NCBI GenBank assembly: GCA_951406725.2
Contig: OX597837.1
Span: 40,114,001-40,178,000 of the forward strand
DNA length: 64,000 nt
Direction: 5' to 3'
Origin: Octopus vulgaris
Taxonomy: Eukaryota
Shown: positions 38,603-40,165 of the stretch, in pieces
How the letters are laid out: each line of letters opens with the position of its first letter
Numbering within the stretch: the stretch's first letter is position 1
The notes under the pieces: model-generated
What the model saw: the letters and a program-made list of their open reading frames with translations, nothing else
Databases searched by the model: none
What the model was told of the DNA's origin: nothing
Translations under genes and position numbers: made by a program

Positions 38603-39193
38603 TTCTATGAACGACAGAATAAGGACAGACCTTATGAAAAGTTATGTCGACAACCAACACACGCCATAGACCTTCATTTACCTACTACAAGCCAAAGACT
38701 TCATTTTAATCTTGATAGACTGGAAGGAAAGGAGCCTGGATTAATGATTAGGGAATTTGGCTCATAATCGTAAGGACATTCCCGACGGCGCGTTTTGTCC
38801 TTGAGCAAGACACTTCATTGCACGTTGCTGCACACCACTCCGCTCGCAACATTAAGTAGTACCTGCATTTCAAAGGGTTATCTCTGTCACATTCTGGGTC
38901 ACGCTGAATCTCCCTGAGGACTACGTTATTAAGGGGACGTGTGCTTGTGGACTGTTCAGCCACTTGCAGGTTAATTTTACGAGCAGGTTGTTCCGTTGAT
39001 CGGAGCAACTGGGACCCATGTCGTCGTAACTGACGGAGCAACATGAAATTGAATGCCTTGCTCGAGGTCACGACGCGCTGCACATTCAAGTAATTGAACC
39101 GACGGCATTGTGGTCGTGAGCCACGCACTATAACCACTACGCCATACAACTGGATTCGAATTTTATCTATTTATTACAAGTTATTCCTACATC

Positions 39194-39781
39194 ACATAAG
39201 GGGCATCAGCCATCTGAATGTGGCTAGGGACAGGGCGGGGTGGTGGGGGTGTTACTGATGCATTTAGCCCCAGGCGATCATCGACGTCACCAGGAGGGCT
39301 GACACCATAATGCATCAGTAACACCCCCACCACCCCGCCCTGTCCCTAGCCACATTCAGATGGCTGATGCCCCTTATGTTATAGAGCAGTTACTGTTTAT
39401 ATCTCGTCTAGAGATTTATTATTGTTTTCGAACGGTTTTTCTACATCAGTGACTGTGTTTACTGTGAAAATCCTTATATATATGGCCTGTAGAGAGAGTC
39501 ATTCGTCGGAGAACGGTGCTTACCATGCGTTGATAAGAGGCAATTACCTCGAAACCTGGTCCGTATGTAGTATCCGTATCTTCGGGGAATGATCTCCCTT
39601 TGCAGGCTAGAGGACACCGAGATGGTGTCAGCCCTCCTGGTGACGTCGATGATCGCCTGGGGCTAAATGCATCGGTAACACCCCCACCACCCCGCCCTGT
39701 CCCTAGCCACATTCAGATGGCTGATGCCCCTTATGTTATAGAGCAGTTACTGTTTATATCTCGTTTAGAGATTTATTATTG
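39194..39781 (+). mobile_element. Hammerhead-carrying non-coding retroelement (retrozyme/Penelope pLTR-like): 357-nt period, 1.3 copies plus 115-bp inversion
   Basis: TSD TATTCCTACATC at 39182-39193 and 39782-39793; 39309-39425 repeats as 39666-39782; 39194-39308 is the reverse complement of 39622-39736. Confidence 0.75.
39524..39567 (+). ncRNA. Type I hammerhead ribozyme candidate, U3-A8 core variant
   Basis: CATGCG-TTGATAA-GAGG-caatta-CCTC-GAA-ACC-T-GGT-C-CGTATG. Confidence 0.75.
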
Positions 39782-40165
39782 TATTCCTACATCGTTTTTA
39801 CTTTAATAAAACTGTCTAGAACCAACCTTCTGAATGGCGGGTGTCATATTCACATAAAAATAGTAAAAATTTGTGATAGACAAGAAGGAATCATAGAAAT
39901 GAGACTTTGTCTGATAAATTCATCATCTCCGGATTTAAATTTGTTTAAAGATTAACATCTGGTTATTTCTCCAGCGTATAGCATGTGTGTTGCACCTGTA
40001 CCTTGAGGGTCGATTTGTAATTTTCTGTTAATAAAGATTCTGGAGATAATCTTCGATAGATGAGATGTTTTTCGAAAATTTTTGTTTGAAATTTTTTTTT
40101 TATGAAGTGGTTGTCTGTATGTCTAGTGTTTCTTGTAGTGTGCTGTGTTCTTCATATACAAATAC

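Follow-up and report, generated by a model that had tools for sequence, protein, structure and literature searches.

A 357-nt retrozyme family with Penelope-type insertion ends in Octopus vulgaris

Described retrozymes and Penelope-like elements

Metazoan non-LTR retrozymes are presented in the main text of Cervera and de la Pena 2020 (PMC7229834) as ORF-less units within 170-400 nt and with GC contents under 50%, which carry one type I hammerhead each, form tandem copies flanked by target-site duplications (TSDs) longer than 4 bp, produce strongly self-paired RNA and share their genomes with Penelope-like elements (PLEs), mussel units being about 350-390 bp long. The family described here, represented by an insertion in a window of 64,000 nucleotides of Octopus vulgaris DNA (contig OX597837.1, positions 40,114,001 to 40,178,000 of assembly GCA_951406725.2), shares these traits and, as judged by every feature that can be tested from sequence, is a non-LTR retrozyme. 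Two differences must be considered. Expression, cleavage and circles were demonstrated for the retrozymes of that paper, whereas the octopus family is known here from its DNA alone; besides, octopus copies as a rule show inverted arms and two fixed termini, while the word "inverted" is absent from the main text of PMC7229834.

PLEs were proposed in the same paper as helpers of metazoan retrozymes, and the enzyme that mobilises animal retrozymes is named as an open question both there and in a recent preprint (Li, Clavereau, Pollet 2026; bioRxiv 10.64898/2026.07.22.740005). Like the present analysis, that text regards retrozymes as non-autonomous PLE partners, on the basis of co-occurrence and of pLTR homology and phylogeny, mainly in Xenopus. 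By contrast, the case of the octopus family rests on its integration signature, no pLTR-wide homology to a local PLE having been found. Local amplification is discussed in the preprint as the source of tandems, whereas octopus arrays were apparently made at insertion, and the word "tail" does not occur in the preprint's main text.

Regarding EN+ PLEs, PMC8557442, PMC3846280 and PMC11167929 describe insertions formed by partial tandems, with an adjacent inverted and 5'-truncated copy, a 30-40-bp tail at one end, a bias towards AT-rich or microsatellite targets and TSDs near 10 bp, while PMC4209133 reports palindromic helix III and the U3:A8 variant in their hammerheads. The octopus family resembles them in all these aspects, and is unlike them in that its unit lacks an RT or GIY-YIG ORF, measures 357 nt instead of kilobases and has a tail of 45 nt, exceeding the published length. 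Non-autonomous PLEs of Chlamys, such as MRC1 (PMC8557442), are also pLTR-forming and appear as multicopy head-to-tail insertions; according to that text they generally resemble autonomous families at their 3' end, whereas in the octopus family just a short tail motif resembles one candidate helper and, in contrast to the MRC1-type elements, a hammerhead is present. How Penelope elements make tandem, inverted and tailed ends is stated as an open question in PMC8557442.

The octopus family joins this question and that of retrozyme mobilisation through the mechanics of insertion, not through co-occurrence, and the resource it offers consists of young copies in the hundreds, exactly defined start sites, a substrate of 357 nt and a candidate helper that is intact. 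No report of a PLE tail or of paired termini in a retrozyme was found in a literature mostly devoid of subscription papers and supplements, nor one of a cephalopod retrozyme in the same literature, repeat databases lying outside it. The preliminary description of this DNA had seen here its best candidate for an undescribed element family; this holds for the family, not for its class, which is already described (PMC7229834; bioRxiv 10.64898/2026.07.22.740005). The family, probably unannotated so far, is a member of that described class rather than a new class.

Anatomy of the insertion and its hammerhead

The insertion is bounded by the direct repeat TATTCCTACATC, present on the forward strand at 39182-39193 and 39782-39793, with exactly 600 bp from start to start, as initially noted, and with no extension possible on either side. 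Its reading as a 12-bp TSD also holds. Among 84 family loci, 19 are not placed in (TA)n, and eight of these have TSDs of at least 8 bp (8-15 bp), versus 8 of 342 mismatched flank pairs, an excess which indicates that the direct repeat is not due to chance; the other 11 of the 19 have no TSD, and the mode of TSD length in the family is 12-13 bp.

Two arms lie between the repeats. The inverted one (39194-39308, minus strand, 115 nt) matches 39622-39736 in reverse complement, 114 of its 115 positions agreeing, while the direct one (39309-39781, plus strand, 473 nt or 1.32 units) repeats with a period of 357 nt, 39309-39424 recurring at 39666-39781 with two mismatches in 116 positions (39317 and 39408). 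Both the inverted segment and the periodicity had been recognised in the preliminary description, which placed the end of the direct arm at 39782; the arm stops at 39781, and the 357 register persists for one further base past the repeat and then breaks within the TSD. A single monomer, taken from 39309-39665 (plus strand), provides the numbering 1-357, whose phase is arbitrary. In this numbering the inverted arm covers positions 314 to 71 and its 3' end is the fixed terminus T1 (position 71), whereas the direct arm covers 1 to 116 and its 3' end is the fixed terminus T2 (position 116). The 45-nt stretch from T1 to T2, here called the tail, is found at 39737-39781 (plus strand), with a second, internal occurrence at 39380-39424, and is the best conserved stretch between the window family and its sister family F2. 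With arms that meet head-to-head at 39308/39309 with zero gap and zero overlap, the window copy is a clean case of a 115-nt T1 arm, a 473-nt T2 arm, a blunt junction and a 12-bp TSD.

Six-frame translation of the doubled monomer yields no stop-free stretch above ~90 aa, in agreement with the earlier remark that the insert holds no credible ORF. An autonomous EN+ PLE was considered as its identity and discarded, no RT or GIY-YIG ORF lying inside the element. A TATA-like run followed by an initiator-like TCATT (39475-39503, plus strand) is a weak candidate for a promoter and is poorly conserved among the other subfamilies.

The single hammerhead that had been perceived inside the insert is a type I-like motif at 39524-39567 (plus strand), backed by covariation. 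It comprises stem I (39524-29/39562-67), a UUGAUAA core with U3:A8 (39530-36), stem II (39537-50) and GAAA (39551-54), all on the plus strand, together with a 2-bp stem III with a near-palindromic loop, and its cut is predicted after C39561 (39561/39562). A predicted long imperfect rod (39483-39609, plus strand) would prolong stem I, and the pairs adjacent to this stem covary across families. U3:A8 takes here the place of C3:G8, a covariant also described for PLE hammerheads (PMC4209133). The 117 motif matches collected, which may contain repeats from overlapping loci, distribute into 74 U3:A8, 40 C3:G8 and 3 U3:G8 cores, and 101 of them show a palindromic stem III, the mark of hammerheads thought to work as dimers (PMC4209133).

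Changes on both sides were observed at 12 of the 28 predicted pairs among 13 natural units, a result reached by 0 of 500 shuffles and collapsing in slid controls, under a control that is lenient in that the related sequences aligned for this count also supplied the structure. The monomer folds with z = -4.3, none of 100 shuffles being as good; the isolated hammerhead motif is predicted to adopt a form other than the catalytic one. In Rfam, the window hammerhead has no match at gathering score or at E<=5, the sub-threshold matches at E<=5 being mostly miRNA models on the hairpin of the inverted arm. Two or more same-strand hammerheads occur in at least 6 of 53 loci of contig C1. The presence of two or more consecutive ones is the criterion for "active" in bioRxiv 10.64898/2026.07.22.740005, where cleavage failed in 8 of 9 Xenopus retrozyme dimers. 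The window copy has a single hammerhead and thus cannot excise a monomer alone.

Some further features of the locus deserve mention. A high-copy interspersed repeat, presumably SINE-like, occupies window positions 38750-39040, ~150 bp left of the insertion. If read through, the head-to-head arms at 39194-39379 would give a hairpin with a ~71 bp stem, to which miRNA models give weak scores, and double-stranded RNA directed against the retrozyme family could arise from loci of this kind. The empty-site joint was not found in contigs from eight sequencing runs, which by their nature cannot show absence. Two such contigs span 39753-40100 with 5-6 differences, but include only 29 bases of the element, too few to count as bridging it, and offer just a hint that the window insertion may be present in other samples.

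Paired termini and the template of the arms

The insert belongs to a family of ORF-less copies dispersed in the genome. Searching the genome with the monomer returned 1,645 first-look candidates, 40 of which were scored, while one monomer 20-mer has 1,012 exact matches (control 0) and the tail pattern 1,444 (control 0). These many dispersed copies answer the genome-wide check that had been suggested, and genome copies support the initial view of a young hammerhead-bearing retroelement with a self-contained 357-nt unit and more-than-unit arrays. Counts given below for contig C1 come from a sample free of score bias, formed by every locus (55 in total) to which the first 100 pattern matches belong and covering most of that contig, and rest on 53 loci, duplicates L235 and L236 having been removed beforehand.

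In this sample, the termini T1 and T2 account for the ends of 75 of 83 arms, and TSD boundaries fix them at about 70-71 and 114-117, respectively, ~45 nt apart. Arms form 27 head-to-head pairs, mostly with junction gaps within ~9 nt; both ends are canonical in 21 pairs, 20 of which have one arm at T1 and the other at T2. Such alternate use of T1 and T2 by paired arms implies that what had been called a 5' inversion is in reality a second, separately primed arm, begun at a fixed site that lies 45 nt away from that of the first, and not a random inversion. (TA)n adjoins 59 of the 75 ends, as well as 65 of 84 loci in a wider set, both being raw counts without a genome-wide background. Arms exceed 357 nt in 25 of 75 cases, the longest reaching 2,019 nt, and they pass every monomer position, with up to 5.6 turns, never leaving the unit. 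In vitro, as reported in PMC11167929, the PLE tail corresponds to what lies between two internal start sites of the RT, and cleavage and extension affect both strands of AT-rich target DNA.

The preliminary description had opposed a retrozyme to a Penelope pLTR. The features of both are there, and the two options are not alternatives, since the insert is a retrozyme bearing a Penelope integration signature. We are strongly confident that it is a PLE-mobilised non-autonomous element, and confident that it is a non-LTR retrozyme copy likely written by an RT/GIY-YIG enzyme of Penelope type that acted in trans on unit-repeat RNA. According to this proposal, (i) tandem source loci would be transcribed, paired hammerheads would cleave the transcripts after GUC and circles of 357 nt would be closed by a host ligase, (ii) the PLE enzyme would nick both target strands ~12 bp apart, each nicked 3' end priming reverse transcription at T1 or T2, and (iii) each cDNA would proceed upstream around the unit and halt at random, after which the two cDNA ends would be joined and repair would create the TSD. 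In the window copy, the 115 nt from T1 would have been copied at one nick and the 473 nt from T2 at the other.

As for the template, the cut site is reached by 41 arms and crossed by 38 of them, and this read-through excludes a single pass over a linear cleaved monomer. The early suggestion of reverse transcription on a circular or multimeric RNA stands in this respect, a circle being plausible. Close to the cut, five 5' ends were seen versus 3.6 expected, the overall distribution fitting a uniform stopping rate, and no pile-up of 5' ends was found at the cut, at the putative start site or at the partner terminus (one of 21 bins with p = 0.045). Units in one locus diverge by 1.5% in tandem and by 2.2% across arms, and loci by 8.1% on average; however, the nearest other loci are as close as the units inside one locus, so that within-locus identity proves nothing by itself. 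Variants offer a finer view. Across 50 loci, those occurring in more than one unit extend to every unit in 38 cases and to just part of the units in 7, 182 further variants being private; among the former, 27 extend across both arms and 10 are absent from all five nearest loci. These all-unit variants indicate that both arms and all turns usually come from one unit sequence, which would match the prediction for a circle, and which a homogeneous multimer would give as well.

The longest array, at L226:2746-4764, has 5.6 units plus 1.8 inverted. In it, a two-base variant recurs in two of five tandem units (units 1 and 3), suggesting a mixed or dimeric template or a later duplication, and thus arguing against a pure circle, as a single homogeneous circle leaves it unexplained. 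Separately, a recurrent "G>C" variant at monomer position 281 was rejected as an alignment artefact. If mobilisation by a PLE is granted, the chances that the template was a circle are even, an uncut multimer is quite conceivable and template jumping is improbable.

The alternative that survives best maintains the same PLE enzyme and makes the template an uncut linear multimer from a tandem source array, with hammerhead and circles as side products or as part of another step; we regard it as a tentative but serious possibility. Uncut RNA is the main PLE substrate in vitro, where hammerhead mutants insert normally (PMC11167929), and the confinement of the L226 variant to part of the units also agrees with it. 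Moreover, young source arrays would be homogeneous regardless, and multimers could come from those loci, at least 6 of 53, that hold more than one same-strand hammerhead. Nonetheless, random 5' truncation should shorten arrays at every round, yet units of 346-362 nt persist across families that are ~60% identical; the ratio of 38 all-unit to 7 partial variants needs a single-unit bottleneck at some step; and the hammerhead retains compensatory changes.

Local Penelope families and related repeats

Young RT/GIY-YIG PLEs, intact ones included, are present in the genome, where families A, B, C and D were distinguished; the helper search scored 150 of 6,136 GIY-YIG candidates, and other PLE families may exist. 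Family A has a 781-aa RT/GIY-YIG frame, at least 16 of the 150 matches listed and pLTR pairs that are 99.3-100% identical. It targets (TA)n, shows two termini ~38 nt apart and contains a hammerhead-like motif with a UUGAUAA core. Its tail resembles the F1 and F2 tails in a CUCG/GAG hairpin and then UUAUUAU two bases before the terminus, a short likeness spotted by eye among 20 comparisons (shuffle p = 0.003 for each of F1 and F2, uncorrected). Nothing similar was seen between the B and D tails and those of F1 and F2, and the F3 and F4 tails do not match that of A. The best partner candidate may therefore be the intact family A with its similar tail, a weak and post hoc choice, and we consider its role as helper possible, at somewhat less than even chances.

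A bolder reading, in which ~355-nt ribozyme RNA circles would parasitise the family A enzyme by means of a tail mimic, one circle templating both strands in rolling-circle fashion from two start sites, seems rather unlikely to us. If true, it would prove at the genome level the circle-to-tandem cycle proposed for retrozymes and would give a minimal natural substrate for explaining tandem and inverted pLTRs in PLEs.

Beyond nested retrozyme copies, no homology between the monomer and PLEs was detected in 30 GIY-YIG loci, 47 PLE regions and 20 family D loci. In a further alternative, the insert is the 5'-truncated end (pLTR plus inverted pLTR) of an autonomous Penelope with tandem units in its 3' region, close to the pLTR fragment of an ORF-bearing Penelope contemplated at the outset. 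The anatomy is indeed textbook PLE (PMC8557442 and PMC3846280), and the local family C has a duplicated ~290-nt unit behind its ORF. However, arms that cover all monomer positions for up to 5.6 turns stay inside the unit, and none of 34 free 5' ends matches proteins of the four local PLE families, joins PLE coding sequence or has a common fixed upstream junction, nor does any of 20 tail-variant loci match those proteins. Furthermore, units in one locus differ by 1.5%, against ~12% for the family C duplicate, and the monomer profile has no match in the pLTRs of families A-D. The explanation is therefore very improbable, and the fragment claim does not hold.

TSDs of 8-15 bp, like 5' inversions, are also produced by L1-type insertion. 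A short element mobilised by a LINE through L1-type twin priming, compatible with the TSDs and inversions found, or a satellite spread by DNA-level recombination, in favour of which one locus shows later tandem amplification of a 119-bp end fragment, can nevertheless be dismissed as having hardly any probability: both arms stop at fixed internal sites and lack poly(A), their sequences overlap instead of abutting, 5' ends are not in excess at the partner's start site, and dispersed, TSD-flanked and randomly truncated copies do not fit a satellite. The amplified fragment, at L259:1829-2543, is a 119-bp minisatellite of about six copies, each composed of the retrozyme 3' end plus (TA)12, a DNA-level amplification seeded by insertion.

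PLE fragments do appear near a few retrozyme loci, convergent or separate in those inspected. At L013:1501-2377, an arm stops at position 248, with five bases left before the ribozyme cut, and a decayed PLE endonuclease fragment follows it in the same orientation, an arrangement that may reflect a template switch or a later rearrangement. The local PLEs have peculiarities of their own. In family A (L287:4768-8471, L284-L292), a second long frame of up to 479 aa from stop to stop lies upstream of the RT/GIY-YIG ORF and overlaps it, without convincing match in Pfam, canonical PLEs having a single ORF. Family D (L237-L256, L277-L283) is very young and abundant, with 21,167 candidates, 137 scored at 99-100% identity, frames of up to 1,214 aa, (TA)n ends and only one 3' terminus in the copies seen. 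The duplicated unit of family C (L070:3428-4000, L143, L150) is AT-rich and lies after the ORF; the hammerhead pattern was not found in it.

Sister families F2-F5 are whole-unit homologues of the window monomer. At least four such families were recognised, whose units are close to 350-360 nt in length and which share the layout of the window family and, in the cases where these could be seen, its paired termini. In F2, F3 and F4 the units measured span 346-360 nt, F2 being 60% identical to the window unit and returning 3,016 first-look candidates in the genome when used as query. F2 is represented by L073, L084 and L091, F3 by L149:2808-3366, F4 by L067:437-990, and F5 and others by L192:383-831 and L243:108-251. 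Finally, more hammerhead-like motifs occur in unrelated small repeats near PLE loci, at L134:526, L144, L145 and L147.
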